NCBI GenBank assembly: GCA_964487485.1
Contig: CAZAQQ010000003.1
Span: 1-24,377 of the forward strand
DNA length: 24,377 bases
Direction: 5' to 3'
Origin: an uncultured Candidatus Bathyarchaeia archaeon
GTDB taxonomy: Archaea > Thermoproteota > Bathyarchaeia > 40CM-2-53-6 > CAZAQQ01
Both the position numbers and the translations under genes were made by a program. This document shows, one piece after another, positions 2,890-19,480 of this stretch (positions within the stretch are counted from its first letter, which is position 1; every line of letters starts with the position of its first letter). The notes under the pieces are model-generated. The model had not been told where the DNA came from and did not search any database. It worked only from the letters and a program-made list of their open reading frames with translations.

Positions 2890-3001
2890 TTCTGATCGCC
2901 GTTAACTTTCTCATCAGTGGCACATTTATTAGACTATCCGTTAAGATTTGTAACCCACCTCCCTAAGGACAAGGCAGTCATTCGAAAGACTATGATACTA
3001 A

Positions 3002-3295
3002 ATGTTCCACGCGCTCTATCTTGACTGGCACCAGGTAGGCCCTAGTGGCCAGTTGAAAAAAGCTAATTTTGACTCTAGAAACATAAGGCTAATTCATGAT
3101 AGGGATTTAGGATGGTGTTTTTTTCGAGGAGTTGAAATCCTCAACGCATGGACTAAAGCTGGTTTTCTTAAGGAAAGTGGCTTTTTGAGCAAGAAGTATC
3201 AGCTAACCGAAAACGCAGCGAGACTGCTGTCGAAACACAGAGAGGAGTTGCCCAAAAACTTAAATTTCCTGCGAACTAACAAGCCGACAAATTAG
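3002..3295 (+). CDS. Hypothetical protein, possible winged-helix fragment
   Basis: 97-aa ORF directly upstream of the CoA-transferase genes; ILNAWTKAGFLKESGFLSKKYQLTENAARLL resembles the helix-wing end of wHTH regulators, but the N-terminal half is unconvincing. Confidence 0.35.
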   Translation: MFHALYLDWHQVGPSGQLKKANFDSRNIRLIHDRDLGWCFFRGVEILNAWTKAGFLKESGFLSKKYQLTENAARLLSKHREELPKNLNFLRTNKPTN

Positions 3296-3307
3296 GGTGC
3301 TTAAAAT

Positions 3308-4261
3308 TTGGTGCTTTATACCAGTGAGGATAAGCTCATGCCGCTGAGCGAAGCGATCAAGAAATATGTGAATGATGGAGATAAGGTCTGCTTCGGCGGA
3401 GCCTTGATCCTCAGGGAACCTATCGCTGCAATATATGAATTGATCAGGCAGAAGAAGAGGAACTTGCATATTATCGGAACCGCGCATGGCTTTGATGTAG
3501 ATCTGGCTTGTGGCGGGGGGATCGTAGGCACGGAAGAGCATACCTACGTGGCCTACGAGTTCGTTTACCGTGGGGGCTGCCCAAACTATAGAAGAGCAGT
3601 TGAACAAGGTAAAATTGAGGAGAAAGAGAACTGCTGCTACTCTGTCATCGCGGGGCTAAGAGCACAATCTTATGGGCAAACCTTCTATCCTGTAGACTTC
3701 CTCCATGGGACAGAAGACATCAAGTATCATCCGGAATACAAGGAGATTACTTGCCCCTATACAGGCAGAAAACTCATAGCAGTCCCACCTATTAAACCCG
3801 ATGTGGCGATTCTTCATGTTTACAAGGCTGATAAGCGCGGCAACGGCGCGTTGGGAGCGCCTCTTGTCGCCGACGTACTCATGATGAGAGCTGCTAAGAG
3901 GACTATATTGACGGCGGAAGAAATCGAACCTACAAGCTGGTTCACTGAAAGACAGGCCGCTCTAATTCCCTACTTCCACACCGCAGCCGTGAGCCATGCG
4001 CCCTTCGGAGCTCACCCAACTGCTTGCTACCTCTACTACACATACGATAAGGAATTCCTCAATGAATATCTAGAGTATGCGCGTGAGGGAGATGAAAGTA
4101 TGGCGAAATGGCTTGACAAGTACGTTTACGGCGTTTCCAGCCACGATGAGTACTTGAAGAAAGTTGGAGAGGAAAGGTTGAAGCAACTACGAGACTGGAG
4201 AAAGATGAGGGAAGAAGCAGAAAACCTGAGGAAGAAACTGAAGGAGGAATGGGTGATCTAG
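3308..4261 (+). CDS. Family I CoA-transferase alpha subunit (GctA/IpdA-like)
   Basis: MPLSEAIKKYVNDGDKVCFGG, KPDVAILHVYKADKRGN, AAKRTILTAEEI and APFGAHPTAC are typical of glutaconate CoA-transferase A-type subunits. Confidence 0.9.
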   Translation: MVLYTSEDKLMPLSEAIKKYVNDGDKVCFGGALILREPIAAIYELIRQKKRNLHIIGTAHGFDVDLACGGGIVGTEEHTYVAYEFVYRGGCPNYRRAVEQGKIEEKENCCYSVIAGLRAQSYGQTFYPVDFLHGTEDIKYHPEYKEITCPYTGRKLIAVPPIKPDVAILHVYKADKRGNGALGAPLVADVLMMRAAKRTILTAEEIEPTSWFTERQAALIPYFHTAAVSHAPFGAHPTACYLYYTYDKEFLNEYLEYAREGDESMAKWLDKYVYGVSSHDEYLKKVGEERLKQLRDWRKMREEAENLRKKLKEEWVI

Positions 4262-5235: not shown

Positions 5236-5625
5236 CTAATTCCGCGTTCGGTGTTGCTCAGCATAAGGGCCATGCTGATTTTCCGTTACTACACCTGTTA
5301 CGAGGTCGATTGCGAACAATATGTCTTCTCTAGGCAGCATGCTTGATAGTGTCGCAAGAACTTCTCTAAGCAAGTCCTTTGGCACAAATTCCGGCGGCTC
5401 CATAGCCAGTCTCAGCAACTGAACGGCTTTTCGTTGTGCCGGGAAATTTAGTCTAGACCGCGCTAGCTCCTCCAACGTTACGCCCAGAATCACCGACTCT
5501 CTTTCGTAGAGATAGAGGAGCACATCTGCGATTTCTTCAGAGGAGACTGACTCAACTTTCTTAAGAGCCAGCAAGAGTTTCAGTCGCCTCTTTCGACGCC
5601 TTTCAAGCCCAGAATAATTGGTCAC
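5236..5625 (-). CDS. Hypothetical helical protein
   Basis: GGAGG 7 nt upstream of GTG 5625 gives a ~129-aa ORF (MTNYSGLERRRKRRLKLLLALKK...); protein-like composition; no family recognised. Confidence 0.55.
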   Translation of the reverse strand: MTNYSGLERRRKRRLKLLLALKKVESVSSEEIADVLLYLYERESVILGVTLEELARSRLNFPAQRKAVQLLRLAMEPPEFVPKDLLREVLATLSSMLPREDILFAIDLVTGVVTENQHGPYAEQHRTRN

Positions 5626-5744
5626 CACTGCGCCTCCTAATTCCTCCCTGTTATGAATGTGAATGGCAATCATGTGCATTTATGAAAGTAGCATCGTTCT
5701 AGCTAGCATAAAGGTCACATTCTTCATCACAACTCCACTTTGCG

Positions 5745-6032
5745 CTAGGCAAACCTATCGCCGAAAACTTTGTAATCTTTCTCCAAAAAGTTAGATAGTT
5801 GTCTAGCTAAAATCTTTGTTGAAGACTTCGAGGCCGAAGTTCCTAGCATACTAAACTCATAATCGCACCTGGGGCACCGAACTCTAGGGCATCGAAGAAC
5901 AGACTGTTGGCAACCAACGCAGGCTACGGCTCTAGAGTAAAGGATTGAAAACCTAAATCCGCAGTTGGGACACTGCACAAGGTTCGTGACTTTCTTTGTT
6001 CTTCTTATTTCTTCGATTTCCCAAGGTTCCAA
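5745..6032 (-). CDS. Small Cys-rich (7 Cys) zinc-ribbon or Fe-S-like protein
   Basis: CPNC-x13-CVGC-x6-C-x4-CPRC. The start is moved to TTG 6032 because the track ORF (to 6203) overlaps the corrinoid gene on the other strand. Confidence 0.75.
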   Translation of the reverse strand: MEPWEIEEIRRTKKVTNLVQCPNCGFRFSILYSRAVACVGCQQSVLRCPRVRCPRCDYEFSMLGTSASKSSTKILARQLSNFLEKDYKVFGDRFA

Positions 6033-6099: not shown

Positions 6100-6738
6100 A
6101 TGTCTTCTGAAAAGGAAATTCTTGAAAGGCTGAAAGCATCTGTGGCCGCAGGCGAGGAGGAAACTGCGGAGAGATTGGCTAAGGAAGCGCTCAGCAAGAT
6201 CAAGCCAACAAAAATCTTGGAAGCCGCGTCAGCGGGGATGGCAGTTATGGCGGAAAAGTACTCGCGTAACGAAGTATTTCTGCCTGAGGCTACTGTTACT
6301 ACAGCCGCTTTCTACAAGGCGTTTGAAGTCGTACAGCCTGCGATGAAGGAGGCTGCGCCGCCAAAGCTCGGTAAAGTAGTTATTGGAAGCGGCTTTGGGG
6401 ATGTGCATGATGTTGGAAAGAACTTGGTTAAAGTCATGCTAGAAGCAGCAGGGTTTGAAATCTATGATTTAGGACGTAATGTGACAGCTGAACAATTCCT
6501 AAACAAGGCGATGGAAATCAAGGCGGATATAGTAGCCATATCAGCCTTATACACGCCTACTGTCGTTGACATAAGGAGGTTTGTTAAGCTGCTGAATGAG
6601 AAAGGTGTCAAGGGCAAAATCAAAGTTATGATAGGCGGCGGCTCTACGTCGCCAGCGATTGCTGAAAGCCTAGGCATAACCTACGGAAAAGACTTGCATG
6701 ACGCAGTTTTGAAGGCCAAAGCCTTGGTGGGTAGGTGA
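6100..6738 (+). CDS. Methyltransferase cognate corrinoid (B12-binding) protein
   Basis: Four-helix cap followed by the DxHxxG motif (GDVHDVGKNLV), LEAAGFEIYDLGRNV, SALYTPT and IGGG. Real start ATG 6100 (212 aa); the track's N-terminal 45 aa overlap the opposite-strand gene. Confidence 0.93.
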   Translation: MSSEKEILERLKASVAAGEEETAERLAKEALSKIKPTKILEAASAGMAVMAEKYSRNEVFLPEATVTTAAFYKAFEVVQPAMKEAAPPKLGKVVIGSGFGDVHDVGKNLVKVMLEAAGFEIYDLGRNVTAEQFLNKAMEIKADIVAISALYTPTVVDIRRFVKLLNEKGVKGKIKVMIGGGSTSPAIAESLGITYGKDLHDAVLKAKALVGR

Positions 6739-6744
6739 GGGAGC

Positions 6745-7818
6745 ATGGCAAGTAAGGAGCTTTCTTCTTTCGACAGGATTGGGATGGCGGCAAGAGGGGA
6801 AGAACCGGATCGCGTGCCTATGGGTTGGCTTGGACACTTTGAGCAGGGAATTGCCCTGCCTAATGTGAAAGTGTTTGAGGTTGTGACTGACAAGTCAGGT
6901 CGAAGGCTCTTTCAAGGAATAAAGGCTGTTTTTGATCGTTACAACCCAGATGCAATCACTGTGTTCACTTACACAATCGTGGAAGCTGTAGCTATGGGAA
7001 CAAAGCCCAAGTATTATCCGGATATTCCGCCAGGTCCGTTTGAATATGTGGTGAAGGAGCCGAGGGATCTTGATTTGCTTAAGATTCCGGATCCTAGGTT
7101 CGATGGAGATTTGCCCTGCATATACAACGCCATAAGGCAGGTTGTGAAGGAGTATGGGGGCAGAGTACCTATCGCATCGAATACGACGGGGCCATGCGCA
7201 GTCGCGGCAAGGATCAGAGGCCTTTGGGAGTTTTGCTACGATATTATGAAGAGGCCTTGGTTTGCACATGACTTAATGGAGCATGCAACTCAAGCTTGCA
7301 TCAACATTATCAGCCACTACATACCCCTAGGCCTCACAGGAATAGGTTGGGGAGCGGGCTCTGAGACAACCATAAGCGCAGACCAATTCAGGAAGTTCGT
7401 GTTGCCCTATGACAGGAGATATGTTAGGGCAGCTAGAAAAATGGGTGTTTACAGCTTTACTAGGCATGTGTGCTCCGGCCCAAGCGCGCCCTACGTTGTC
7501 GATGCCTACACCGACATAGCGAGAGACGGGGCCTACACCATTTGGGGCCTTTTCGAGTCTCCTGAGGTTATGGCTAAGAAAAAAGAGCAGTTTCCAAAGC
7601 CAATCGTAACAGGAGGAGGCCCGAACACATCGCTCGTACAACTGGGCAAGCCTGCAGAAGTAGTAAACGAGGTAAAAAGATGGATCAAGACAGTGGCTCC
7701 TGGCGGGCGATACCTGTTCATAGGTGACTGCGGAATCCCACCTGCTGCAACACTTGAAAACGTAGACGCCTACGTAAAAACAGCGAAGGAAGCTGGAAAA
7801 TATCCGATAAAAATCTAG
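6745..7818 (+). CDS. UroD-fold cobalamin-dependent methyltransferase (MtaA/CmuA family, Zn-thiol type)
   Basis: EEPDRVP start, VEAVAMG, TTGP, H241-V-C243 and C329 (GDCGIPP...ENV) form the HxC...C zinc site; 6 nt downstream of the corrinoid gene. Confidence 0.88.
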   Translation: MASKELSSFDRIGMAARGEEPDRVPMGWLGHFEQGIALPNVKVFEVVTDKSGRRLFQGIKAVFDRYNPDAITVFTYTIVEAVAMGTKPKYYPDIPPGPFEYVVKEPRDLDLLKIPDPRFDGDLPCIYNAIRQVVKEYGGRVPIASNTTGPCAVAARIRGLWEFCYDIMKRPWFAHDLMEHATQACINIISHYIPLGLTGIGWGAGSETTISADQFRKFVLPYDRRYVRAARKMGVYSFTRHVCSGPSAPYVVDAYTDIARDGAYTIWGLFESPEVMAKKKEQFPKPIVTGGGPNTSLVQLGKPAEVVNEVKRWIKTVAPGGRYLFIGDCGIPPAATLENVDAYVKTAKEAGKYPIKI

Positions 7819-7944
7819 TGCGTTACCATACTATCTTTTTTTGGAAATTATCTTCCATTCTGCGAAATCATTAATCCTAGACCCAAAAGCTAATATGCGC
7901 CTACGGTAGGTGCTGGGTTCTCCAAGTGGTTGGAGGTATATTGT

Positions 7945-8443
7945 GTGGCGCGGGAAGAAATTTTGAAGAGAGCTTATGAGCTGGGTTACAAATACCAGAG
8001 AGACAATAGGAATTGTGCGCAGTCCACCGTAGCCGCTGTGCAAGACGCTTTGAACATGAGGGACGATAACGCTTTCAGAGCTGCCAGTGGCCTCGCAGGC
8101 GGATCTGCCTTCATGGGTGTTGGGAATTGCGGAGCCTATTCCGGAGGAGTAATGATCATCAGCTCTAGGTACGGTCGAGAACGTAAGGATTTCAGCGATA
8201 TCAAAGTACCGTCGCTCTCTGGAAGTGGCTAAGAAACTCTACGAGAAGTTCAAGCAGGAATACGATAGTTGCATTTGCCATGACATTCAACGGAAGGTTT
8301 TCGGCAGGTCTTTCAACCTATGGGATAGCCATGACCTTGAGGAGTTTACGAAGGCGGGAGGGTTCTCTGAGAAATGTCCAATCGTTGTTGGAAAGGCTGC
8401 TGCTTGGGTCGCTGAAATAATTTTAGACACTGAGGAGAAATAG
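7945..8443 (+). pseudogene. C_GCAxxG_C_C family putative redox protein, split by a frameshift near 8200-8206
   Basis: GGAGG at 7932, GTG 7945. Frame 1 has NCAQS and GNCGAYSGG up to DFSDIK; frame 2 continues KYRRSLEVAKKLYEKF...CICHDI...KCPIVVG to TAG 8443. Together they make one full-length family member. Confidence 0.8.
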
Positions 8444-8535
8444 CTTCTATCTCCAAGCGTCCATATGATGATTTGGCGGCTGGCTTGGGGGACATCAGCC
8501 TCCAACAGTTTCGAAGAACAAACCGTGAGCGGAGC

Positions 8536-8549
8536 AAGCCGAGAGGCTT
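8536..8549. terminator. Small GNRA-loop hairpin between convergent genes
   Basis: AAGCC-GAGA-GGCTT between the stop at 8443 (+) and the stop at 8568 (-). Confidence 0.3.
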
Positions 8550-8567
8550 CAGGAGTGGTGTTAGCGA

Positions 8568-8879
8568 CTAGGATTTTGTGGAAAGCTTCTGCCTTATTTC
8601 TCGTACCTCAGCCTCTAACACAAATACTTTCTGCGCCAAGTCAAACCGCTTCCCAAGCTCCTCGACTTTTAGATCGACTGCCTTAACATCCTTGCTTAAC
8701 GAATCGAACCTAGAGTCGAAAAGCTCAACAGCACTCTCAAGTTTTGAGTCGAAAAGCTTAGTCATACTGTCAAACTTCACATCGAAGAGCTTAACGACGC
8801 TTTGCAGCTCCTCCTTGACAATTTCTCTTACTTCAGGCGCGGTAAGCCTTTTGATAACTTCTTTTGCAGTCTTCGCCAT
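8568..8879 (-). CDS. Small coiled-coil protein with three 11-residue repeats
   Basis: KLFDVKFDSMT / KLFDSKLESAV / ELFDSRFDSLS; 33-bp periodicity in the DNA (GAGTCGAAAAGCT at 8713 and 8746, variant at 8779); C-terminal VLEAEVREIRQKL. Confidence 0.75.
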   Translation of the reverse strand: MAKTAKEVIKRLTAPEVREIVKEELQSVVKLFDVKFDSMTKLFDSKLESAVELFDSRFDSLSKDVKAVDLKVEELGKRFDLAQKVFVLEAEVREIRQKLSTKS

Positions 8880-8928
8880 TGTCCTCGATATGTTAAGGTG
8901 AAGTCTCCTCTTTAAAAGTTACTTCAGG

Positions 8929-9090
8929 CTAAGCCACGGCAGTAACTCTAGCTCCTCCTTCATTAACTTCATCTAGGCTAATGTCTGCTGGCTCGGCTTG
9001 ATCTTTCGTGACTGGCGCAGTTGTGTATAGCTTTTGGCCAGCTGCCAAATATTGGATGGTAAGGCATTGCGCTTTTTCGCCAGAGGCCAT
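8929..9090 (-). pseudogene. Possible degenerate UPF0175-like antitoxin remnant
   Basis: Manual translation MASGEKAQCLTIQYLAAGQKLYTTAPVTKDQAEPADISLDEV... loosely resembles the LY-x4-VT-x3-AE-x-A-x-ISL pattern of UPF0175; an adjacent frame gives KLMKEELELLPWL. Confidence 0.2.
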
Positions 9091-9129
9091 TCATCAAGGA
9101 ATGCGGTAGTATCACCTGTCACAGCGTCT

Positions 9130-9279
9130 AACGGAAGGTTTTCGGCAGGTCTTTCAACCTATGGGATAGCCATGACCTTGAGGAGTTTACGAAAGCGGGA
9201 GGATTCTCTGACAGGTGTCCAACCGTCGTTGCAAGCCTCCGCTTAGACTAATGAAATACTCTTAGACACCAAAGAAACA
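9130..9279 (+). repeat. Decayed second copy of the C_GCAxxG_C_C gene 3' end
   Basis: Translates RKVFGRSFNLWDSHDLEEFTKAGGFSDRCPTVVA, then a 2-nt deletion, TGG->TAG, and NEILLDTKET. Confidence 0.9.
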
Positions 9280-9293
9280 TGTTTCATTTTTTT

Positions 9294-9932
9294 CTAAGAT
9301 AGTTTCTTGGCTATTGTCGTCAGATGTTTTCCCAAATGTTTCGCCATTTTCAGCTCATTAGCCGATGGCATTCGTTCGTCCATCGGCCCCGAGATGGTTG
9401 AGGCGCCGTATGGCGAACCGCCACTTATTTCTTCTAGTGTCATCTGTTCCGTAAATGAATAGGGCAGACCGACTAGAACACAACCGTGGTGCAAAAGCGG
9501 GATCATGGTTGTGATGATAGTGGTTTCTTGTCCCCCATGCTGAGTGGCCGTACAGGTGAAGACTGCTGCTGGTTTGCCGATAAGGGTGCCCTGCATCCAA
9601 TCGCCTGATGTCTGATCCCAAAAGTTCTTCATCTGAGCTGACATGTTACCGAAGCGGGTGGGGGTTCCTACAATAACTCCGTGAATCCCTTTGAGATCCT
9701 TCTTGGGATCAGCTGTCGGAATATGCCTCATCAATTCTTTCGTCTTTTTCATATTTTCATCCCACTGTTCTTGTGGAATAAGCTCGGCGACCTGCCGGAG
9801 GACTGGTTCACCACCTGCCTCTCGAACTCCATCAGCCATGGCTTCGGCCATTCCAAAGATCTGACCATGCCTTGAGTAGAAGAGAATCAGAATTCTTGGT
9901 CTAGACGAACTCAAATTCCACTCACTCTTCAC
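9294..9932 (-). CDS. wrbA: NAD(P)H:quinone oxidoreductase, type IV (WrbA flavodoxin-like)
   Basis: ILFYSRHG, VGTPTRFGNMSAQMKNFWD, TATQHGGQETT and GGSPYGAST are WrbA signatures. Confidence 0.95.
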   Translation of the reverse strand: MKSEWNLSSSRPRILILFYSRHGQIFGMAEAMADGVREAGGEPVLRQVAELIPQEQWDENMKKTKELMRHIPTADPKKDLKGIHGVIVGTPTRFGNMSAQMKNFWDQTSGDWMQGTLIGKPAAVFTCTATQHGGQETTIITTMIPLLHHGCVLVGLPYSFTEQMTLEEISGGSPYGASTISGPMDERMPSANELKMAKHLGKHLTTIAKKLS

Positions 9933-10072
9933 TTTTTCTTGTTGAGCGATCTATTTCATGCACTGGCTTAAACCCTTTTGTAGAATTGTCTCTCATTTCT
10001 TAGTCTTCGAAAAATAATAGAGAAGGTAGATCGTTGTGGAAAAGCAGTCACTTTTTCTTTTGCATGTGAAAC

Positions 10073-11833
10073 CTACCCGTGAAGAGCGCGTCTAACCTCT
10101 TCCCACTTTTTCTTTTGAGTAGCGAGCTTACATATCTGAACAGCGTTTCCCGGGTCTTTGCCATATACGAGGAGGCTTGCCGTTTCGGCGAAGGCCTTGT
10201 CCAAGGCACCTCCACCAACTCCAAATACAATGTCAACTCCCTCTTCCTTAAGTTTCTTAGCCGTTGCCACAAAGGCTGGCCTAGTAGTCGTCATCAGTGC
10301 AGAGCCAAGAACTGCTATGGGCTTGTACTTCTTAATCGCCTCGGCGACGGTTTCGGGAGGTACAGATTTTCCCAAGTCAATTACCTCGAAGCCGCTGGCG
10401 GAGACTATTGCTTTAACAATGTTTTTTCCTATGTCATGTACGTCGCCGTCAGCGCAGTGCACTAATATAGTGCCCAGCTTTTTCACAGCGGCCAGTTCTT
10501 CCTTGCAGACTGCTAGTCCAGCTTGCATAGCGGAATTAGCTAGTAGGATTTCAGGAACGTAGGCTAATCCCTCATTGTAAAGTTTACCCGCAGCTTGTAC
10601 CCCTGGCAGGAGACCTAGGTTCACGATGTCCACGCCTTTAGAGCCTTGTTTGAGAGCCTTCTCACAGAGCTGCCTAGTCTTGGTTTCATCTCCTCTAAGC
10701 ACAGCTTCAGAGATAGACCCGTAGGGTTCATCTTTGGGCATAATATCCTTTACTAACTGAAGAGGTTCTACGGCCCTAGCTTTGGGCGCCTCGGGCTTAG
10801 CTTCCAAGCCTACGGGTGCTCTTTCCTCAAGCTTGAACTTCTCAGCCACCTCTAAGAGCATCCTAATATTTTCCAGCGGAGTTCTAGGCGCTATTGTGCA
10901 TCCAGACGATAGGATGTCTATGCCTGCGCGCAAGGCTTTGAGAGATTCTCTTTCCACATCTGCTATCGAACCCTGGAGAAGAACTGAGACTGGCGCGATG
11001 TTTCCAACGAGCGATATCTTGTTTCCCACTACCTGCCTAGCATAGGCCACATCTACCTTTTCCTCGAATGAAAAACAATCCACGTCAGTTTCCGGGATAT
11101 ATTTCATGTGGCCGCTGGTATTTCCGCAGATATGGAGTACGCAGGGAACATCGATCTTGCTGAAGACTTTTTTGTGGGCTGGAGCTACAAGATCTCGGTA
11201 TGTGTCAGCGCTTATCAAATCGCCTGACGAAGTGGGATCGGAAATAGTGACTATGTCTACCCCTGACCTAGTGGCTGCGGATGCGAATTCCGTAGAAACG
11301 TAAGCCAGCTTATCCAGCGCTTCCTCCACTTTCTCCGGGTTTGTCTTCACCCAAGAGACAAACCTGTCTACTCCAAATACATGACCAGCAATTGTGAAAG
11401 GACCCGTAACTTTCACGGTAAGCGGGATCTTGTCTGAGACCTTTTCCCTCAGGATTTCAATGGCTTCCAAGGCTACGGGTATGCGTCCTTTTTCCACAAT
11501 CTTTTCCGGAATCTTGAGGTTATCTACGTCTTTGAATGCTGGCCCAAGCACTGAGGGAGTCCTATCCACACGTCCCTTATCTATTGGGCAGCCCAATGCT
11601 TCAGCTTCGACGCTAAGGCAAAAGGGTAGCGTCGTAGTTGGCAAGCCCGTTAACTCGTAGGTGGCCGCGGCAAGTCTAGCCATCTTCTCAGGATCCCAGT
11701 GGGCGTCGGGCCAGTAAGTCTTAGAAGCTTCCATGGCGTGAACTGTGGTAGCAACAACAGGGAGGTAAGCAGGAACCCTGTCTACCCTCCCGCCCAGGAG
11801 AGCTGAAAGGATTCTTCTTCTAGTTGTCAGCAA
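10073..11833 (-). CDS. Fused MtaA/CmuA-type methyltransferase (N-terminal) and MtaC-like corrinoid protein (C-terminal)
   Basis: Residues 1-333: LPFCLSVEAEALGC, GPFTIAGH, H234-I-C236, C312 (SSGCTIAPRTPLENI). Pro/Ala/Glu-rich linker. Residues ~365-586: cap helices, HCADGDVHDIGKNIV, GSALMTTT, GGGA. One uninterrupted 586-aa ORF. Confidence 0.92.
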   Translation of the reverse strand: MLTTRRRILSALLGGRVDRVPAYLPVVATTVHAMEASKTYWPDAHWDPEKMARLAAATYELTGLPTTTLPFCLSVEAEALGCPIDKGRVDRTPSVLGPAFKDVDNLKIPEKIVEKGRIPVALEAIEILREKVSDKIPLTVKVTGPFTIAGHVFGVDRFVSWVKTNPEKVEEALDKLAYVSTEFASAATRSGVDIVTISDPTSSGDLISADTYRDLVAPAHKKVFSKIDVPCVLHICGNTSGHMKYIPETDVDCFSFEEKVDVAYARQVVGNKISLVGNIAPVSVLLQGSIADVERESLKALRAGIDILSSGCTIAPRTPLENIRMLLEVAEKFKLEERAPVGLEAKPEAPKARAVEPLQLVKDIMPKDEPYGSISEAVLRGDETKTRQLCEKALKQGSKGVDIVNLGLLPGVQAAGKLYNEGLAYVPEILLANSAMQAGLAVCKEELAAVKKLGTILVHCADGDVHDIGKNIVKAIVSASGFEVIDLGKSVPPETVAEAIKKYKPIAVLGSALMTTTRPAFVATAKKLKEEGVDIVFGVGGGALDKAFAETASLLVYGKDPGNAVQICKLATQKKKWEEVRRALHG

Positions 11834-11927
11834 AATTGTTACCTTTCCCTGTTCCGCATATGAGCCACGAAGGCTTTTTATGCTTTTTCAAAAGTCGATT
11901 TTGGAATTTACTATCATAGGAGCAAGA

Positions 11928-11964
11928 GCTTTCTCTGAAAGCGATGACAGTTAGTTTTATAAAG
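11928..11964 (+). promoter_or_regulatory. Inverted repeat plus TATA box upstream of the ABC transporter operon
   Basis: GCTTTC-TCT-GAAAGC at 11928-11942 and TTTTATAAAG at 11955-11964, ~37 nt before ATG 12001, within the divergent intergenic region. Confidence 0.5.
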
Positions 11965-12000
11965 GCACTACTGGATAAACATCTTGCCGAGGTTTTATCA

Positions 12001-13347
12001 ATGTCGACTAAGCCAGTTTCCAGAAGGGAGTTCCTGAAATACGGAGCATTGGCTGCTGGAGCAGCAATAGTTGCAGGCGGAGCCGTATACTATGCTACGC
12101 GACCAGCACCACCTCCAGCTCCTAAGGCAGCGATTAAGATCGGTGACCTGTCAGGCAAAACTGGGGTCGGCGCGAACTGGGGACTGCACATGACTTTAGG
12201 CACGAAGTTGGCTGTTGACGAACTGAATGCAGCAGGAGGAGTCCTAGGTAGGCCTGTTGAAATCGTAACGGAAGACACCGCTTTGAGGGCTGATGTCGCG
12301 ATCAAGAAGGCAGAGAAATTGATCTTGGAGGATAAGGTAGCTGCTATTTTCGGGGTCCTCTCCAGCGGCGTTCAAAGAGCCGTGATAAAAGTCACGGAGA
12401 AATACAAGACGCTGCACTTCCTTTGTGTTGCATGCGCAGACTACTTTAGAACAGTGGACTTCCACAAGTATTTCTTCACCGTACATCAAGACGGCAGGAT
12501 GAGTCACAGAGCACTCGTCACATGGCTTGAGAAGGAATACAATCCAGACCCAACAAAGCTTTTGATAACCTATCAAGACTATGCGATGGGCTGGGCACAT
12601 GAAAGAGCCGTCAGGAAAATTTTCGAGCACGCATTTGGTAAGAAAGGAACGAACAAAGTGGCATGGCCTTTAGGGGCGAGAGATTTCACACCTTGGTTCC
12701 CGAAAATCAAGGAAATTGCCCCAGAATACTACCATAGCTCCACATGGGGAATGGATTCTATAACGCAGATAAGGCAGATGGGTGACTACGGTTTACTTAA
12801 GGGCCTAAAATCATTCACCGGGTCTTGTTGCATATACCTCACATCAGATCTAACTTTCTATGGTCCAACTGCCGACGGCACTGCCTTTCCGAAATACTGG
12901 GCCTATCCTTCTCCGAACAAGGAAAGCATCGACTTCCGAGACAAGTTCTTCGCCACATTCGGCCAAACGCCAAACCAAGCTTCTGCAGCCCACTACGAAG
13001 GGGTTAAGCTATGGGCAAAGGCTGTTGAGAAGGCCGGTACTACAGACCCGGATGCAGTGGTTGAAAAACTCGAGGGTATGGAATACACAGGTCCCCTAGG
13101 TCCCGGCGGCACCAAAGTCATGAGGAAAGAAGATCACGCAGCCATATTCGACAATCAGATAACACTGATCGACAAGGGAAAGGAAGTAGTAGTTGCCACC
13201 GTTGACGGTAAGGTATGTGCGGGTAAACCGATGCCTAAATTCCCAATTCCAGAAGGGAAAACCGTGGAAGATGCTATGGAAGCCGTGTATGACCAAGACT
13301 CCTACAAGCCCATGCCAGACATCAAGAAAGTGCGATATGAAGCATAG
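12001..13347 (+). CDS. Liv-type (PBP1) ABC transporter substrate-binding protein with a Tat signal/anchor
   Basis: MSTKPVSRREFLK twin-arginine motif, hydrophobic helix and Pro linker; IKIGDLSGKTG, NAAGGVLGRPVEIVTEDT, DYAMG, AGTTDPDAVVEKLEG. Start at ATG 12001 is favoured by the TATA position. Confidence 0.93.
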   Translation: MSTKPVSRREFLKYGALAAGAAIVAGGAVYYATRPAPPPAPKAAIKIGDLSGKTGVGANWGLHMTLGTKLAVDELNAAGGVLGRPVEIVTEDTALRADVAIKKAEKLILEDKVAAIFGVLSSGVQRAVIKVTEKYKTLHFLCVACADYFRTVDFHKYFFTVHQDGRMSHRALVTWLEKEYNPDPTKLLITYQDYAMGWAHERAVRKIFEHAFGKKGTNKVAWPLGARDFTPWFPKIKEIAPEYYHSSTWGMDSITQIRQMGDYGLLKGLKSFTGSCCIYLTSDLTFYGPTADGTAFPKYWAYPSPNKESIDFRDKFFATFGQTPNQASAAHYEGVKLWAKAVEKAGTTDPDAVVEKLEGMEYTGPLGPGGTKVMRKEDHAAIFDNQITLIDKGKEVVVATVDGKVCAGKPMPKFPIPEGKTVEDAMEAVYDQDSYKPMPDIKKVRYEA

Positions 13348-13380
13348 AAACCATTGATGCCCTTCGTCGATTGATAACCC

Positions 13381-14265
13381 TTGTTGGAATATGTCCTGAG
13401 GGTTATCCTCCCCTCTTTTTTTGACGGCCTAATACTAGGCGCATCCTTCGGCCTCGTAGCCCTAGGCCTTTCCATAATTTTCGGCATCACGGGTGTAATT
13501 AATTTTTCACACGGTGACTTATTCATGTTAGGGTCCTACATAGGTTTGACATTATTGTGGTCGATCTTGCCCAATTTCTGGATCTCAATTATTGTTGCTG
13601 CACTAGTTCTAGGGGCTATAGGAATAATGATTGAGCGTCTTATATGTAGACCCCTCTATGGCAAAGCTCCATTACTGATCTTCGTTGCCACATTTGGGTT
13701 AGCCCTATTTCTTCGAGAAGCCGCTAAACTAATCTGGTCGCCGAATCCGATATCGGTTGACGCGCCTTTGATTGGCCACATGTCTTTCGGGGTGTTCTAC
13801 TATCCGATTTACCGATTAGCAATTTTGATCATTTTCTCTATTGTTTACGCGAGCGTCTGGTTCTTCTTCAATAAGACGAAATATGGAGCTATTGTGCGTG
13901 CGGCTACTGAGAACAGTCAAATGCTCGCTTGCTTAGGAGTTAACGTGTCGCGCGTGAGGATGTTTACTTTTTCCCTTGCTTCAGCATTAGCGGCGGTTGG
14001 GGGGATGATAATGCTTCCTATAGCTAGCTTAAGCCCCGAAGCAGGAGCCTTAGTTATCCTGTGGTGTTTCTACATAATTGTTCTTGGCGGAATGGGCAGT
14101 ATCGGCGGCACCGTTTTGGCGGCTTTCGTAATAGGCGAAATATTTACCCTAGGCTCAGTTTGGTTGGAACCGAGGGAAATGGAAATTCTCGGCTTTCTAA
14201 TATTGATCACTGTGCTTATTGTGCGTCCCCGCGGATTCTTCGGTAAACCATTATTGTTGGAGTAA
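13381..14265 (+). CDS. livH: Branched-chain amino acid-type ABC permease (LivH family)
   Basis: GLSIIFGITGVINFSHGDLFMLG, TKYGAIVRAATEN, VLGGMGSIGG, VRPRGFFG. Confidence 0.93.
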   Translation: MLEYVLRVILPSFFDGLILGASFGLVALGLSIIFGITGVINFSHGDLFMLGSYIGLTLLWSILPNFWISIIVAALVLGAIGIMIERLICRPLYGKAPLLIFVATFGLALFLREAAKLIWSPNPISVDAPLIGHMSFGVFYYPIYRLAILIIFSIVYASVWFFFNKTKYGAIVRAATENSQMLACLGVNVSRVRMFTFSLASALAAVGGMIMLPIASLSPEAGALVILWCFYIIVLGGMGSIGGTVLAAFVIGEIFTLGSVWLEPREMEILGFLILITVLIVRPRGFFGKPLLLE

Positions 14266-14270
14266 CGATC

Positions 14271-15218
14271 ATGGGTGAAATTTCTAAGCTTCTCTCTCTT
14301 CCAAGAGTTTTCAGCTACCTAGTTCCGATAGCTGCGGCTCTAGGTGTTCCTTACCTCATGCCTACGTATTACGTTAGCCTCTTAGCTGATGCCTTCGCCT
14401 TGGCTCTGGTGGCGATGGGTGTGAACCTAATGCTGGCCTATGCGGAACTGCCTAGTTTCGGACATGCAGCTTTCTATGGAGTAGCGGCTTACGTAGTGGC
14501 CATGGCCTTTATGTGGCTCAAAATGCCTGTCTGGGCTTGTTTCGTTCTAGCAGTAATTGTTTCGCTGGGCTTAGGTTTGGCAATAGGTTCTTTCTCCATC
14601 AAGCGGCGGGGGATATATTTCGCAATAATCACACTCGTATCTGGGGAGGTAATTCACCGCATATTTTGGTATACAAGGGCTGTTGGAGGCTCTGACGGCA
14701 TGTCCTTTCCAAGGTGGTTCGAGCTGCGGCCAGGCTACTACTTTGTCCTAGCTCTCGTCTTGGTTGCTTGTCTACTATTCTTGGTTATTGGTAGTTCCCC
14801 GTTTGGGAAGGCGCTTAGGGCGATCGGCGAGAACGAAGTGAGGGCTAGGTTTGTCGGATACAATGTGGAACTCTACAAGAGGATTGCCTTTGTTCTCTCG
14901 TCTATCTTCCCAGCGTTGGGCGGAGCCTTCATTGCTGGGTACAGAGGCTTCGTGAATCCTTATCTAGCGTCAGTTCATATTTCTTCTGAAGCCGTGATAG
15001 CGACTCTAATTGGCGGCAGCGGAACCCTAATCGGGCCAATCCTAGGCAGTATTTTCCTAGTTTTTCTCATGGACATAGTGAGCAGCTACTGGGTCGGATA
15101 CCTTACCATTATCGGCATGGCAATAGTTCTAGTAATACTCTTCATGCCGCAGGGCACCATACCTCTCACTAGAGCACTCGTAAGCCCTCGATTGAGGAAA
15201 AGCAAGGTCAAGTTGTGA
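14271..15218 (+). CDS. livM: Branched-chain amino acid-type ABC permease (LivM family)
   Basis: SFGHAAFYGVAAY, GIYFAIITL, GGSDG, SPFGKALRAIGENE, IGGSGTLIGPILG, FMPQG. Confidence 0.93.
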   Translation: MGEISKLLSLPRVFSYLVPIAAALGVPYLMPTYYVSLLADAFALALVAMGVNLMLAYAELPSFGHAAFYGVAAYVVAMAFMWLKMPVWACFVLAVIVSLGLGLAIGSFSIKRRGIYFAIITLVSGEVIHRIFWYTRAVGGSDGMSFPRWFELRPGYYFVLALVLVACLLFLVIGSSPFGKALRAIGENEVRARFVGYNVELYKRIAFVLSSIFPALGGAFIAGYRGFVNPYLASVHISSEAVIATLIGGSGTLIGPILGSIFLVFLMDIVSSYWVGYLTIIGMAIVLVILFMPQGTIPLTRALVSPRLRKSKVKL

Positions 15219-15225
15219 TGTAGCA

Positions 15226-15963
15226 TTGGGCACCATTCTAGCAACGAGAGGCTTGACCAAGAATTTTGGTGGACTATCCGCCGTAAGCGATTTCGACCTC
15301 AGCGTCGAGCAGGGGGAAATAAGAGCAATAATAGGCCCAAACGGCGCTGGAAAAACAACACTTTTCAATTGTATGACAGGATTCTATCGGCCTGACGCTG
15401 GAAAAGTGTTGTTTAAGGGAGTAGACATAACTGGGCTTCCACCCCATAGAATTAGTAAGATGAATATCTCAAGAACATTCCAACTAACCAATATCTTCTT
15501 GAGATCTACAGTCTATGAAAATATTAGAGTGGCTCGGCAGTCGCGAATGAAGGGATTCGGCTTATTCTCCACGTCGGTTCCAGCCTATGAAGAGGAAGCA
15601 GCCAACATACTGAGGAAAATTGGTCTCTACGACCGTAAAGATGAGTTGGCTTGCAACCTATCCCATGGAGAGCAAAGACACTTGGAGATCGGCATAGCTC
15701 TCGCCACTAGCCCCGAGTTGTTAATGCTGGATGAGCCCACAGCTGGAATGAACCCCACGGAGGTAAAGGAAACCGTCAACACAATAAGGGAAGTGGCGAA
15801 AACTCTAGGCGTGACCGTCTTACTCATTGAGCATGATATGCGTGTCGTAATGGATATTTCAGACATGATAACTGTTATGCATCTGGGGAAAAAGATTGCC
15901 GAAGGAAAGCCTGAAGAAGTTAGAAAAAACGCAGAAGTAGTACGCGTGTACTTCGGGGGTTGA
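15226..15963 (+). CDS. livG: ABC transporter ATP-binding protein (LivG family)
   Basis: FGGLSAV, Walker A GPNGAGKTT, LSHGEQ signature, Walker B MLDEPTAG, LLIEHDM. Confidence 0.95.
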   Translation: MGTILATRGLTKNFGGLSAVSDFDLSVEQGEIRAIIGPNGAGKTTLFNCMTGFYRPDAGKVLFKGVDITGLPPHRISKMNISRTFQLTNIFLRSTVYENIRVARQSRMKGFGLFSTSVPAYEEEAANILRKIGLYDRKDELACNLSHGEQRHLEIGIALATSPELLMLDEPTAGMNPTEVKETVNTIREVAKTLGVTVLLIEHDMRVVMDISDMITVMHLGKKIAEGKPEEVRKNAEVVRVYFGG

Positions 15964-15967
15964 AGCT

Positions 15968-16675
15968 TTGCTGAAATTGAATGATGTACATGCCTATTAT
16001 GGCTTGAGCCATGTGCTTCAAGGAATATCCCTAGAGATAGGGGATAAAGAGATTGTAACCCTCCTAGGAAGAAACGGCATGGGAAAGACTACGACATTTA
16101 ACACTATTATGGGCGTTATCCAGCAAACTTCGGGCAACATCACACTTCAAGGTGAAGACATTAGGGGGCTACCTCCACATAAAGTAGCTAGAAAAGGCAT
16201 AGGCTACATACCTCAAGGAAAAATGCCATTTCCAACCCTGACCGTGCTGGAAAACCTATCCTTAGGCACAAGCAGCGTAGCAAAGGCAAGTAAGGAATTC
16301 ATTTCTGAAAAACTGGATGAGGTATATGAACTCTTCCCAATTTTAAAGGAGCGAAGACTGCAAAGGGCAATGACCCTGAGTGGCGGTGAGCAACAAATGC
16401 TAGCGATTGCACGAGCATTGATGGGTGAGCCTAAGCTTCTTCTGTTGGACGAGCCCAGTGAATCGCTGGCGCCCATAGTTGTAAGGCAAATTTTCGATAC
16501 TGTTCGCAAGCTACGCGAGAAGGGCAATACAGTATTCCTAGCCGAGCAAAACGTGAAGGGAGCTCTGGAGATTTCTGACCGTTGCTACGTCTTGGAGAAG
16601 GGAAAAATTGTTTTCGAAGGCAGTTCAAGAGAGGTAGAAAAGAGCGAGATAGCGAAGACAAGCTTAGGTGTCTGA
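15968..16675 (+). CDS. livF: ABC transporter ATP-binding protein (LivF family)
   Basis: Walker A GRNGMGKTT, LSGGEQQMLAIARAL, LLLDEPS, LAEQNV. Confidence 0.95.
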   Translation: MLKLNDVHAYYGLSHVLQGISLEIGDKEIVTLLGRNGMGKTTTFNTIMGVIQQTSGNITLQGEDIRGLPPHKVARKGIGYIPQGKMPFPTLTVLENLSLGTSSVAKASKEFISEKLDEVYELFPILKERRLQRAMTLSGGEQQMLAIARALMGEPKLLLLDEPSESLAPIVVRQIFDTVRKLREKGNTVFLAEQNVKGALEISDRCYVLEKGKIVFEGSSREVEKSEIAKTSLGV

Positions 16676-16746
16676 ACGCTCCACCTATTAGTGCGCAAGG
16701 TCTCAACTTTCGTCATCTACTTCGTTTAAGGCTTTGCAACCGATAG

Positions 16747-17256
16747 TTACAGTTTGGGGAAAAATAAAATAAACCTAAGGGTTCCTTGATAGTCATGTGA
16801 GATTACGACCACGCTGTTCTCTCTTCGCGGTGTAATGAAGAAACCCGCGCAACAAGGAGCGACATTCGACTCCTTCGTTATAGCTGTCTCCTCAGAGAGG
16901 AAACTGGCTCCAAATCTTTCATCATTAATATAGATCTCAATTACACCCTCACGCTCACACGTAAAAACCTCCATCTGGAAAAAGGCAAGCTTCTCTTCGG
17001 GTCTAGGCTCCTCCCAGAGGAAGGTATCTCTCACAGTCATCTTCGGCTTTAAGGTAAAGTTAGCTGAAATATAGTGAGTAGCGTTCACCCAACCAACGAC
17101 AGCTGAACGCTTTGCAGTCCTAAGCCCTAAGTACTCGCCTAGAGGGCTATGGAAGACGAATAATCCAGTTGATGCAACAACGACAACTAGGAAGAGAATT
17201 TTGACCGTAGACACGAGTTTCACCATCTTTGGCCACCTGATAGGAATATGCTCCAT
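16747..17256 (-). CDS. Hypothetical membrane-anchored/secreted protein
   Basis: N-terminal hydrophobic segment (ILFLVVVVASTGLFVF) followed by a beta-rich domain with an APCCAG motif; no family recognised. Confidence 0.6.
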   Translation of the reverse strand: MEHIPIRWPKMVKLVSTVKILFLVVVVASTGLFVFHSPLGEYLGLRTAKRSAVVGWVNATHYISANFTLKPKMTVRDTFLWEEPRPEEKLAFFQMEVFTCEREGVIEIYINDERFGASFLSEETAITKESNVAPCCAGFFITPRRENSVVVISHDYQGTLRFILFFPKL

Positions 17257-17389
17257 CTCGCTTCCGAGTTCATGAAAGCATCATCATCCCTTTCGCTAGT
17301 CGATGCCTTAGCTCTAATATAAAGAAACTTTGGTGAAGAATGGTTTTATAGGTTGAATAAGTTCAGATAGTTAGCTCAGTGGGTTCATT

Positions 17390-17812
17390 ATGTCGCATGT
17401 GTATCAAGTGAAGGCGAAGTGGCTGGAGGATGTGAAGGGAAGACTTGAGGCTGGCAAGAACGCTTTTGATTTTTCCGTTCCACTGGATTTCGGCGGTCCA
17501 GAGGGCTATTTCTCGCCAGAAGAGCTTTTCGCAGCTTCTGTTGTAACCTGTCTATGCACCACATTTTGGAACACACTCAAGAAAATGAGGGTGAAACTCA
17601 TGGAATGTGAAGTTGAGGGCAACACAAGTCTACAGCCAGACCCAGAAGGCTTTCACTTCACAGATGTAGTTGTGAAATTGAAAGCAAAGGTCGAGGATAG
17701 CAAGATGGTTGAACAGGCCAAGAAGGCGTGGGAGAAGGCTGAGAAGAGATGCTTCGTGTCGAGAGCCCTGAAAGGAAACGTAGGTGTCAAGGTGGAAGCT
17801 AGCATATCATGA
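17390..17812 (+). CDS. osmC: OsmC family protein (peroxiredoxin-like)
   Basis: FGGPEGYFSPEELFAASVVTCLCTTF and AEKRCFVSRAL carry the two conserved Cys of the OsmC/Ohr fold. Confidence 0.9.
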   Translation: MSHVYQVKAKWLEDVKGRLEAGKNAFDFSVPLDFGGPEGYFSPEELFAASVVTCLCTTFWNTLKKMRVKLMECEVEGNTSLQPDPEGFHFTDVVVKLKAKVEDSKMVEQAKKAWEKAEKRCFVSRALKGNVGVKVEASIS

Positions 17813-18182
17813 ATAGGCAATGGGCCAACAAAGTTTCGTTCCTTGTGTGAAATAGATATCGCTCAAACGGTGTCTGGATCCGCTTTAGCTTTAGCAGGAC
17901 CTGATGCTCTTGACGAATTTTGGTACGTCCGGGAGCATGTAGACTCGACGCTGTGAAGTGAAAAAATCAAGAATTCTTTCTCGACTTAGCTAACTAGACC
18001 TCAAACTGCTTCAAGCCTGAGCTAGAGTCATTCTCAACGCGGCATACTGACCATGAAGAAGAAATTGTTAAGAGCACAAAACGTTTTCATGTCCAAAAGA
18101 TAATGTTTTTCGGTTTAAATAGGCTAGTCAACACTGTATCATCTCTTGAGAGAAGACCTAACTCGGTGCAGGTGAAGGTAAC

Positions 18183-18974
18183 GTGGACATAGTTAAGGTT
18201 CTGAGTTTAGCCATCGAATCCGCGGCAAAGGCTGGGAGAATAGAGCCCTCGGATGAAGTGAGGGTGGCGGCTTTGAGGTGGGAGATCTATGCGAGCCTAC
18301 AAAACCTACTTGACTCGCTTGCGATGGTGGTGGCTGACCTCGGCTTGAGGAAGCCCAGCTCGTACAGCGAGCTAGGTTCTATTCTATTTGAGCGTGGGGT
18401 ATTGGATGCGGAGGACGTGAAGCTTGTCAAGCAGGCGGTTGCAACTAGGAACGTTATGGCTCATGCCTACCGGGCAGTGGAAGTCGATGAACTCAGAAGT
18501 TTGAAGCAGACCGTTCTGCCGAAGGTGCAGGAGATCGCCCGGAAGCTTGTAGGCTACGTTAAGGACGCTGGGCTTGACCCTGAGGTGGTTTGTCCAAGTG
18601 GCCTAGCTGAGGTTTTTGGAAGAAGTGGGGTTCAACTCGCTTACCTTTTCGGCAGCAGAGCTAGAGACGCCTTTAGGGAGGACAGCGACTACGACTATGC
18701 AATCTTGTTCGGACGGCATGTTGCTGTGGAGGATGAGGTTGAGCTGGTGGTGGAACTAGCTGACGCGCTAGGAGTTTCCGTCGATATGGTTAATGTTGTG
18801 GCGTTGGATCGAGCGGACCTTGAGTTGGCGCATAGGGTCTTGAAAGAGGGTAAGCTTGCTTATTCAAGAGATGAAAGTTTCAGAAGGACTTGGGAAAGGG
18901 ACATATTCCTGCAGGCGTTGGACAGCAGGGATCTCTATGATGTCTACGTGAGCAGAGTGGGAAAGAGAAGTTGA
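18183..18974 (+). CDS. Fused HepT-like (DUF86/HEPN) RNase toxin and MNT nucleotidyltransferase antitoxin
   Basis: R89-N-V-M-A-H94-A-Y96 (RX4HXY) in the N-terminal half; G157-S158-x10-D169-x-D171 (GSX10DXD) in the C-terminal half; one 263-aa ORF; GGTGA site upstream. Confidence 0.88.
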   Translation: MDIVKVLSLAIESAAKAGRIEPSDEVRVAALRWEIYASLQNLLDSLAMVVADLGLRKPSSYSELGSILFERGVLDAEDVKLVKQAVATRNVMAHAYRAVEVDELRSLKQTVLPKVQEIARKLVGYVKDAGLDPEVVCPSGLAEVFGRSGVQLAYLFGSRARDAFREDSDYDYAILFGRHVAVEDEVELVVELADALGVSVDMVNVVALDRADLELAHRVLKEGKLAYSRDESFRRTWERDIFLQALDSRDLYDVYVSRVGKRS

Positions 18975-18995
18975 ACCTTTGGAAACTTTAGAAAT

Positions 18996-19069
18996 GGCTG
19001 AGAAGAGATGTTTCGTTTCGAGGGCCCTTGGGAAACGTAGGCGTTAAGGTAGAAGCCGACATCTTGTGA
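18996..19069 (+). repeat. Decayed second copy of the OsmC 3' end
   Basis: Translates AEKRCFVSRAL, 2-nt deletion, GNVGVKVEADIL-stop, versus AEKRCFVSRALKGNVGVKVEASIS-stop. Confidence 0.9.
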
Positions 19070-19159
19070 AAGTTGGGCATGCAAATAGGGCTTTCACTGA
19101 CGGAAACTAAATGTTGCCTGAATACTGTTTGCTCGCAGCAGCGTAAGTTTCACTGAGGC

Positions 19160-19480
19160 TTGATGTTCTTGACGAAAATCTTGGTTCGCCCAGGAGCATG
19201 TGGATTTGATGCTGTAATAGAAGCAACAAGGTCAAATAATGCTGTGAAGCTTAAAATAGAGTCGAAATGCGAAAACATCAAAGAGCTCGCCAAAGACCTC
19301 CAAGAAGTTTCAATAGAAGATTTCTATGGCAGTGGAAGCATCGCGAAGAATAAGATATACACGGTTGCTACGAACTGTATTCGCCATCCAGCCTGCCCAG
19401 TTCCCTGCGCAATCGCGAAAGCTGTTGAAGCCGAACTAGGTCTAGCATTGAAAAAAAATGTGAGCATCGAATTCCTGTGA
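19160..19480 (+). CDS. Small Cys-rich conserved protein (resembles the DUF6951 family)
   Basis: PGACGF, IESKC, HPACPVPCAIAKAVEAELGLALKKNVSIEF match a conserved family of anaerobes as I recall it; the family name needs an HMM check. The start may be TTG 19169. Confidence 0.75.
   Translation: MMFLTKILVRPGACGFDAVIEATRSNNAVKLKIESKCENIKELAKDLQEVSIEDFYGSGSIAKNKIYTVATNCIRHPACPVPCAIAKAVEAELGLALKKNVSIEFL

Follow-up and report, generated by a model that had tools for sequence, protein, structure and literature searches.

The cryptic prophage e14 and phage 21 integrate in the 3' end of the Escherichia coli icd gene. They supply an incoming replacement 3' end and leave an orphan pseudo-end downstream, and the differences between the two copies are largely silent. 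Here we analyse an arrangement of the same kind on a contig of 24,377 nucleotides (nt) from an uncultured Candidatus Bathyarchaeia archaeon (GenBank assembly GCA_964487485.1, contig CAZAQQ010000003.1), which in its entirety is referred to as the window. At two of its genes, one encoding a C_GCAxxG_C_C redox protein (islet 1) and the other osmC (islet 2), diverged direct repeats of the gene end bracket a short cargo; this architecture, which a sequence-only reading of the window had described as 3'-end replacement, is also seen in independent assemblies. Whereas e14 and phage 21 are multi-kilobase elements with their own integrase, the islets of this archaeon are 0.6-1.3 kb long (4 kb in one case) and carry no recombinase gene.

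Among archaeal integrative elements, 14 of 68 use 3'-distal parts of protein genes, the attachment (att) sites are mostly shorter than 26 bp, and the smallest cryptic integrated element, of 2.6 kb, still encodes an integrase (PMC6563490). The islets share with these elements protein-gene 3' ends as targets and flanking direct repeats, but the elements are multigene, whereas the islets have diverged repeats of 38-280 nt and no integrase. The cis-mobilizable elements (CIMEs) of Firmicutes retain attL and attR but no longer have integration and transfer genes, and the integrase of a helper can mobilise them (PMC5704250). The islets likewise keep att-like repeats and lack genes for recombination and transfer; unlike them, CIMEs are decay products of integrative conjugative or mobilizable elements at defined att sites beside helpers, while at the islets no helper, integrase or conjugation genes were found and the repeats are mutually unrelated.

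A further close precedent is the displacement of rhs C-termini, in which a conserved core is the crossover site, a new 3' end arrives together with downstream cargo, and the old end is pushed downstream with a piece of the core; circular intermediates have been proposed and no dedicated recombinase is involved. In rhs, however, the new tip, a toxin together with its immunity gene, is itself the functional payload and tips accumulate in arrays, whereas the alternative ends at the islets encode equivalent C-termini, the cargo is unrelated to the gene, each locus has one orphan, and displacement affects housekeeping genes and one RNA gene. Finally, the Thermococcus integrase Int-pTN3 accepts as substrates any two homologous stretches of about 100 bp or more (PMC5495485). 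Archaeal integration or inversion through any homologous pair would yield crossover sites that are unrelated in sequence, as those of the islets are; no such integrase (PF00589) was matched in this MAG, and the link is to a possible mechanism only. The sequence-only reading knew of no account of such islets. The scar itself is classical, both at icd and at archaeal protein-gene 3' ends; its recombinase-free form of about 1 kb at archaeal housekeeping genes is less described, and here this form is recurrent and possibly has a circular state.

The window is the whole of contig C3 of a metagenome-assembled genome (MAG) of 1.53 Mb in 208 contigs, 82% complete, which is the sole representative of its family among the species representatives searched. 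The neighbours of its RuBisCO also put it in Bathyarchaeia. Its population was found at 99.6-100% identity in several sediment metagenomes, populations 90-95% alike co-occur with it in the same runs, and relatives at about 80% were seen in these samples as well. Coordinates without a contig prefix are window positions; C46, C156, C31 and the like are other contigs of the MAG. We propose, with a probability of roughly 0.55, that the islets were made by Campbell-type single-crossover entry of circular DNA carrying a diverged gene end. The features of islet 1, including its open reading frames (ORFs), with lengths in amino acids (aa), are as follows.

7930-8443, plus strand: C_GCAxxG_C_C redox gene, the target of islet 1; Pfam PF09719 on two ORFs, 7930-8232 and 8225-8443
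8249-8457, plus strand: upstream repeat (DR-L), the current functional-type gene 3' end and 14 nt beyond the stop, aligned to 9090-9298
8289-8370, plus strand: near-identical core, with 80 of 82 positions identical to 9130-9211
8458-9089, no strand: cargo, 632 nt between DR-L and DR-R
8568-8879, minus strand: 103-aa coiled-coil protein, intact, from a small family whose N-terminus is conserved and in which Pro15 is invariant
8929-9090, minus strand: 53-aa ORF of doubtful reality that adjoins DR-R, called as a gene in one JGI contig and without a family match
9090-9298, plus strand: downstream repeat (DR-R), the displaced gene end, dead through two stop mutations and the loss of 2 nt
9294-9932, minus strand: FMN reductase/flavodoxin-like gene (Pfam PF03358), the convergent right flank

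The two repeats of islet 1 lie 841 nt apart and match each other within the contig with a BLAST E-value of 4e-40. Their core includes 64 nt that are exactly identical (8289-8352 = 9130-9193), while the flanks of the core are only 60% and 64% identical, which marks the two copies as no recent duplicates. DR-R is dead because a TAA replaces CAA directly before the core, a TAG replaces TGG and 2 nt are deleted. Its homology to the gene begins at 9090, and the translation upstream of that position matches no family member. We found that, at positions where the live copy departs from the family consensus, the dead copy retains it (Gly, shared by 9 of 10 homologs; Asp, by 6; Val and Thr, by 5 each), which indicates that the dead copy did not arise by decay of the live end. 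The upstream gene is itself frameshifted into two ORFs in the window, by loss of a CA dinucleotide after 8201 (ATCA[CA]AAG; window 8196-8232). The dinucleotide is present in run X2 and in an ENA contig (L031, assembled with metaSPAdes), where the gene is intact and encodes 166 aa; either a recent pseudogene or a polymorphism is thus segregating in the population. Islet 1 is spanned by L031 (window 6691-9409) and by a JGI contig (L027; window 8320-9465).

Islet 2 has the following features.

17390-17812, plus strand: osmC (Pfam PF02566), 140 aa, intact, the target of islet 2
17732-17968, plus strand: upstream repeat (DR-L), the last 81 nt of osmC, the intergenic region and a decayed 5' fragment of DUF6951 (DUF6951')
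17969-18990, no strand: cargo, about 1 kb between the repeats
18183-18974, plus strand: fused HepT-MNT protein, 263 aa (Pfam PF01934, PF18765, PF01909)
18991-19233, plus strand: downstream repeat (DR-R), made up of the displaced osmC' 3' end (2 nt deleted), the intergenic region and the first part of DUF6951, which here is intact
19160-19480, plus strand: DUF6951 gene (Pfam PF22263, E-value 5e-30), 106 aa, intact, the right flank

Here the repeats, which end at about 17968 and 19233, are offset by 1259 nt. The last 81 nt of osmC and the downstream copy (18991-19069) are 78% identical, with 2 nt deleted in the copy. The repeat runs past the osmC stop, through an intergenic region of 55% identity and into the first ~70-110 nt of DUF6951 at 70%, this last part being a second BLAST match at the same offset (E-value 1.9e-6). 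Because it extends from the end of osmC across the intergenic region into the next gene, the repeat suggests that the incoming DNA held a contiguous chunk of a relative's chromosome. The DUF6951' fragment in DR-L, from 17899, has decayed through 2-nt and 4-nt deletions and a stop. The two osmC ends differ at 16 positions, 11 of them third codon positions, and by codon there are nine synonymous and three non-synonymous changes; none of the 10 differences counted by eye on the alignment over the initial ~66 nt of DUF6951' is at a second codon position. Judged from these sequences, the pattern fits dead copies that were once parts of working genes, with two diverged alleles brought together at each site. 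Six contigs from five other assemblies (L015-L020) carry islet 2 with the window sequence; one of them (L020, ENA assembly ERZ27245621) has a 104-bp deletion (17980-18083) in the non-coding part of the cargo.

As at a site-specific element, both islets have flanking direct repeats, one of which overlaps the target 3' end; the integrase inside the element is absent. Where attL and attR would share an identical core, the repeats of islet 1 have an exact match of 64 nt and those of islet 2 one of 15 nt at most. The sequence-only reading had described an identical core followed by a diverged, decayed end at both genes, which holds for islet 1 and overstates islet 2; its remark that the two cores are unrelated in sequence is borne out, as the repeats of the two islets are unrelated to one another.

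To find further cases, we compared the MAG with itself and then removed paralogs. Three loci with the same layout emerged, where the sequence-only reading had proposed a recurrent route and had treated the lack of further cases genome-wide as a ground for abandoning it.

C46, 881-950 versus 2357-2428: end of the UPF0146 gene, 56 of 73 positions identical, bracketing an MNT+HEPN pair (L050)
C156, 3824-3861 versus 2808-2845: final 26 nt of the gene for RNase P RNA and a further 12 nt, 33 of 38 identical (L052)
C31, 7188-7265 versus 3146-3223: end of a nitroreductase gene, 59 of 81 identical, a weaker repeat (L051)

Repeat identity at these loci is 73-87%, without a long exact core. At C156 the RNase P RNA gene (2808-4121 region; Rfam 197 bits) has a copy of its end 1 kb downstream, and the 978 nt of cargo hold two ORFs that belong to no known family, one of 95 aa and the other, which is frameshifted, of ~102 aa. 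The cargo of C31, 4 kb long, is an AMP-pathway cluster of RuBisCO form III (rbcL), e2b2 and AMP phosphorylase (deoA). The order on C31 (1729-6234) is nitroreductase, rbcL, e2b2, deoA, whereas other Bathyarchaeia have deoA(-) rbcL(+) e2b2(-); C31 deoA is merely 45-47% identical to that of other Bathyarchaeia, and C31 rbcL about 80%. At C46, UPF0146 is a gene that is not adjacent to PAC2 in relatives, and its islet repeat contains a hairpin with 9-bp arms and a 6-nt loop (GTTCGAATC-N6-GATTCGAAC). About 150 nt, comprising this repeat and adjacent sequence, recur at 82% identity on C66 (2837-2987) and partly on C193, and flanking segments of C46 (881-2428) have 69-82% copies on C202, C106, C73, C88 and C109; these dispersed copies could belong to a repeated element or come from a relative that was binned together with this genome.

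The self-comparison also returned partial diverged duplicates of other layout on C64, C6, C27, C147, C87 and C128, which were not counted, although C6, C64 and C27 may be regarded as looser relatives. On C6 (7252-9409), livG-livF is followed by a 73%-identical 3' part of livG and a second livF-like ORF, a 1-kb diverged tandem without separate cargo. On C64, an orphan fragment (1098-1374 versus 5598-5856) is 80% identical across the beta/gamma junction of a 2-oxoacid:ferredoxin oxidoreductase and sits 4.2 kb downstream of the intact operon, past two unrelated genes. Candidates on C12, C45, C57, C38, C78, C95, C18, C9, C28, C60, C129 and C5 were set aside because they are paralogs, in tandem or close by, or repeats internal to a protein.

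The cargo ORFs were screened against Pfam, PHROGs, PADLOC and NCBIfam, and no integrase or transposase family matched any of them, as the sequence-only reading had noted for the two islets. Across the 82%-complete MAG there was no match to tyrosine recombinases (PF00589), and the resolvase family PF00239 gave a sub-threshold match only. No terminal inverted repeats were found at the islets, no tRNA lies in the window or the candidate loci, and no duplicated tRNA 3' ends were found across the MAG. Having no recombinase of their own, the islets are non-autonomous. A transposon or insertion sequence with target-site duplication was rejected, there being neither a transposase family nor terminal inverted repeats, and the repeats being 38-280 nt long and diverged.

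A recombinant junction was seen at islet 1. A contig of run X2 (record 9; 762 nt, depth ~4) joins window 8890-9203 to 8363-8810, so that the order along it is the right part of the cargo, the 5' flank of DR-R, the core, the tail of DR-L and the left part of the cargo. It has the DR-R variants of the core (A at 9194 and A at 9203), followed within 9 nt by DR-L-specific bases, which places the junction at the right edge of the core, between 9203 and 9212. Assuming that the Logan contigs of X2 are a k=31 assembly, the junction could not have been produced from the window sequence alone, because the window has no stretch in which DR-R variants are followed by a DR-L tail. The intact-gene strain carries upstream-type bases at these positions. 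Read as sequence, the junction implies an 841-bp circle or a tandem copy of islet 1. Circular intermediates, a check named in the sequence-only reading, have a candidate at islet 1; at islet 2 no joint was seen in the run data.

The ends of the X2 junction contig (8810 and 8890) coincide with polymorphic sites. In other samples the 103-aa ORF lacks 3 bp (CTC) at 8808-8810, which leaves its reading frame unchanged. A JGI contig (L028, Ga0212089_10004183) tracks the window to 8836 and then continues with 58 AT-rich nt that are unlike anything in the MAG and absent from the genome and viral collections searched, and a second contig of that sample (L021), like the X2 junction contig, begins at 8890. 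The departure of L028 and the starts at 8890 may reflect an alternative version of this part of the cargo (8837-8889). In runs X3 and X4 there was no cover over ~7600-8800, and one X3 contig starts at 9299 (3-4x depth). When metagenome contigs at JGI were scanned for 35 nt of the islet 1 core, a single contig matched, and it had the ordinary linear arrangement; neither an attB nor an attP form was seen.

The mechanism that we propose would begin with a circular incoming molecule carrying a diverged copy of a chromosomal gene end. One reciprocal crossover between the chromosomal gene end and the copy on the circle would leave two hybrid repeats, of which the upstream one would keep the gene whole, partly with imported sequence, and the downstream one would be the displaced remainder, decaying afterwards, with the cargo between them. 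At islet 1, recombination between the repeats would continue, giving the 841-bp circle or tandem copy. That the donor was circular, that it came from relatives and that a recombinase acted on it are points that we infer; a single crossover with a gene-end circle would account for repeats that are full-length hybrids, for cargo exactly between them, for an intact and a stranded gene end at each locus and, at islet 2, for a stranded gene start. The bias to gene ends would follow if selection retains only those insertions whose homology spans the gene boundary.

Recombination would be supplied in trans, either by host homologous recombination, using 40-280 nt of homology with DNA of co-occurring relatives, or by an integrase encoded elsewhere, and we weigh the two about equally. 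The choice of RNase P RNA as a target and the repeats of 38-78 nt point to an integrase in trans. Homologous recombination with relatives is suggested by the long, diverged and mutually unrelated repeats, the reach of islet 2 into the neighbouring gene, the co-occurring relatives and the fact that no integrase was found. Persistence of the islets is probably explained by addictive cargo of toxin-antitoxin type. The sequence-only reading had named toxin-antitoxin-like and coiled-coil cargo; islet 2 has the HepT-MNT fusion and islet 1 the 103-aa coiled-coil protein.

Several observations weigh against single-crossover entry. Empty site, donor genome and free element were not found in any collection searched, because the lineage has no close relatives there, and the direction of events is thus one that we infer. 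Searches with osmC and DUF6951 DNA gave no match in the GTDB relatives, which belong to other families of the same order, where the HepT-MNT cargo alone was matched; DUF6951 is rare in the order (two other genomes of 105 searched), the nearest OsmC is 69% identical and in a different gene context, and the nearest C_GCAxxG_C_C homolog is 58% identical. The circle-or-tandem junction is one low-depth contig (~4x) from one run, for islet 1 only. An exact core of 64 nt within flanks of about 60% identity needs an extra assumption, either an att-type core or later gene conversion. The synonymous bias, at small counts, is compatible with an old local duplicate of which only the live copy was under selection. 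C46 and C31 have short, imperfect repeats, and C46, C156 and C31 are each known from the MAG assembly alone. Moreover, an integrase may simply be unassembled, the MAG being 82% complete.

The rival that survives best, though we consider it rather unlikely, is that the islets are remnants of tyrosine-integrase plasmids or viruses at gene 3' ends, whittled by internal deletions to att-like repeats and toxin-antitoxin-type genes. The 3'-end targets suit it, as they include a stable RNA gene (RNase P RNA), a classical integrase target, and so do the exact core of islet 1, the predominance of toxin-antitoxin-like cargo and the 38-78-nt repeats at C156, C46 and C31, which fit archaeal att sizes (PMC6563490). 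The departure of L028 inside the cargo hints at another, possibly longer version of islet 1; however, the 103-aa gene has a family-typical N-terminus, which argues that the window version is not the truncated one. Such whittling would also have had to cut all five loci to 0.6-4 kb with both repeats surviving and no integrase fragment in any, in a MAG where PF00589 has no match anywhere, and the diverged repeats of 210-280 nt in the window, one of which reaches the 5' end of the neighbouring gene, are unlike att sites.

A local origin appears improbable. Under this explanation an old gene-end duplication diverged, unrelated cargo was then inserted, and gene conversion kept the core of islet 1 identical, which could account for the sharp contrast of 98% and 60% identity there. 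A live copy changing synonymously beside a freely decaying one would also give an excess of differences at third positions; the expected fraction is ~0.47 and the observed one 0.69 (16 sites). The consensus residues that the dead copy of islet 1 bears and the live copy lacks do not fit this origin, nor does the absence of second-position differences at the start of DUF6951'. It would further require two independent events per locus at five or more loci, with cargo always exactly between the copies, and it offers no mechanism for duplications of 200-280 nt flanking an insertion. Simple tandem duplication, which cannot bring in new cargo, is not sufficient for the islets.

It is very improbable that the islets are assembly artefacts, in which strain variants or related species of a mixed metagenome were joined through shared k-mers. 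The MAG does contain artefacts of a k=55 assembler (perfect 55-nt repeats, 155 nt apart, on at least nine contigs, e.g. C102 3770-3979 and C7 16033-16242) and redundant contigs (a stretch of 9.3 kb, 99.5% identical, is common to C12 and C19), and the islet 1 core is longer than k=55; the form of these loops and redundant contigs, however, differs from the islet architecture. Misassembly of both islets is excluded, because metagenome assemblies made independently, with other assemblers and from other samples, contain islet 2 in identical form and cover islet 1 over its full length. The downstream copies are truncated and contain stops, and hence are not parts of another organism's whole gene. 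The sequence-only reading had named misassembly, and tandem duplication with deletion, as explanations that would help to undo it. The idea that the dead copies are silent cassettes, serving as gene-conversion donors that vary the C-terminus of the expressed gene, is highly improbable despite a conserved core beside variable flanks and a layout like that of expression-locus/silent-cassette systems, since the copies have frameshifts and stops, the genes concerned encode redox enzymes of housekeeping type and, in one case, an RNA, each locus has one cassette only, and the cargo is unrelated to the gene.

A wider extension of single-crossover entry is speculative and, in our view, doubtful. Recombinase-free micro-cassettes of 0.6-1.3 kb, mostly toxin-antitoxin-like, may circulate in Bathyarchaeia and perhaps in many prokaryotes with the borrowed gene end as their sole mobility module; they would loop out as circles through their repeats, pass to related cells and re-enter the orthologous gene end by homology, each hop replacing the end and leaving a fossil. 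If this is true, small selfish or defence cassettes could spread among related archaea via a conserved gene end, with neither integrase nor transposase. It would explain toxin-antitoxin genes, and even a small metabolic cluster, lodged between conserved genes, as well as orphan gene-end fragments in genomes, and the signature of gene end, cargo and diverged dead end copy could serve for dating and tracing exchange between uncultured lineages. For annotation, dead ends and split genes of this kind are easily miscalled.

In the islet 2 cargo, the HepT domain is N-terminal and the MNT domain C-terminal, and the motifs RX4HXY (HepT) and GSX10DXD (MNT) are legible in the sequence; the NCBIfam scores are 73 bits for MntA and 41 bits for HepT, the latter below its cut-off. 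With both domains and both motifs the protein appears akin to the type VII HepT/MntA toxin-antitoxin. That system, however, consists of two separate genes with demonstrated toxicity and neutralisation, while the islet 2 protein is a single fusion known from sequence. Full-length fused homologs with 44-49% aa identity (L010-L013) were found in four other genomes of the order, from three other families; this is a conserved family and not a one-off fusion.

The 103-aa protein of islet 1 had nothing above the cut-off in the four family collections, and a search of the Atlas gave generic coiled-coil look-alikes only. It belongs to a family of 28 clusters at E<=1e-3, whose alignment shows the conserved N-terminus, and the in-frame 3-bp polymorphism speaks for the ORF being a real gene. 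Its homologs have varied neighbourhoods, one beside an MNT+HEPN pair and one near an IS605-type element, and none has gene-end repeats. A 47%-identical homolog on a contig of another organism from the same samples (L039, JGI Ga0212089_10023724, 703-2333) lies just 3' of a separate MNT+HEPN pair.

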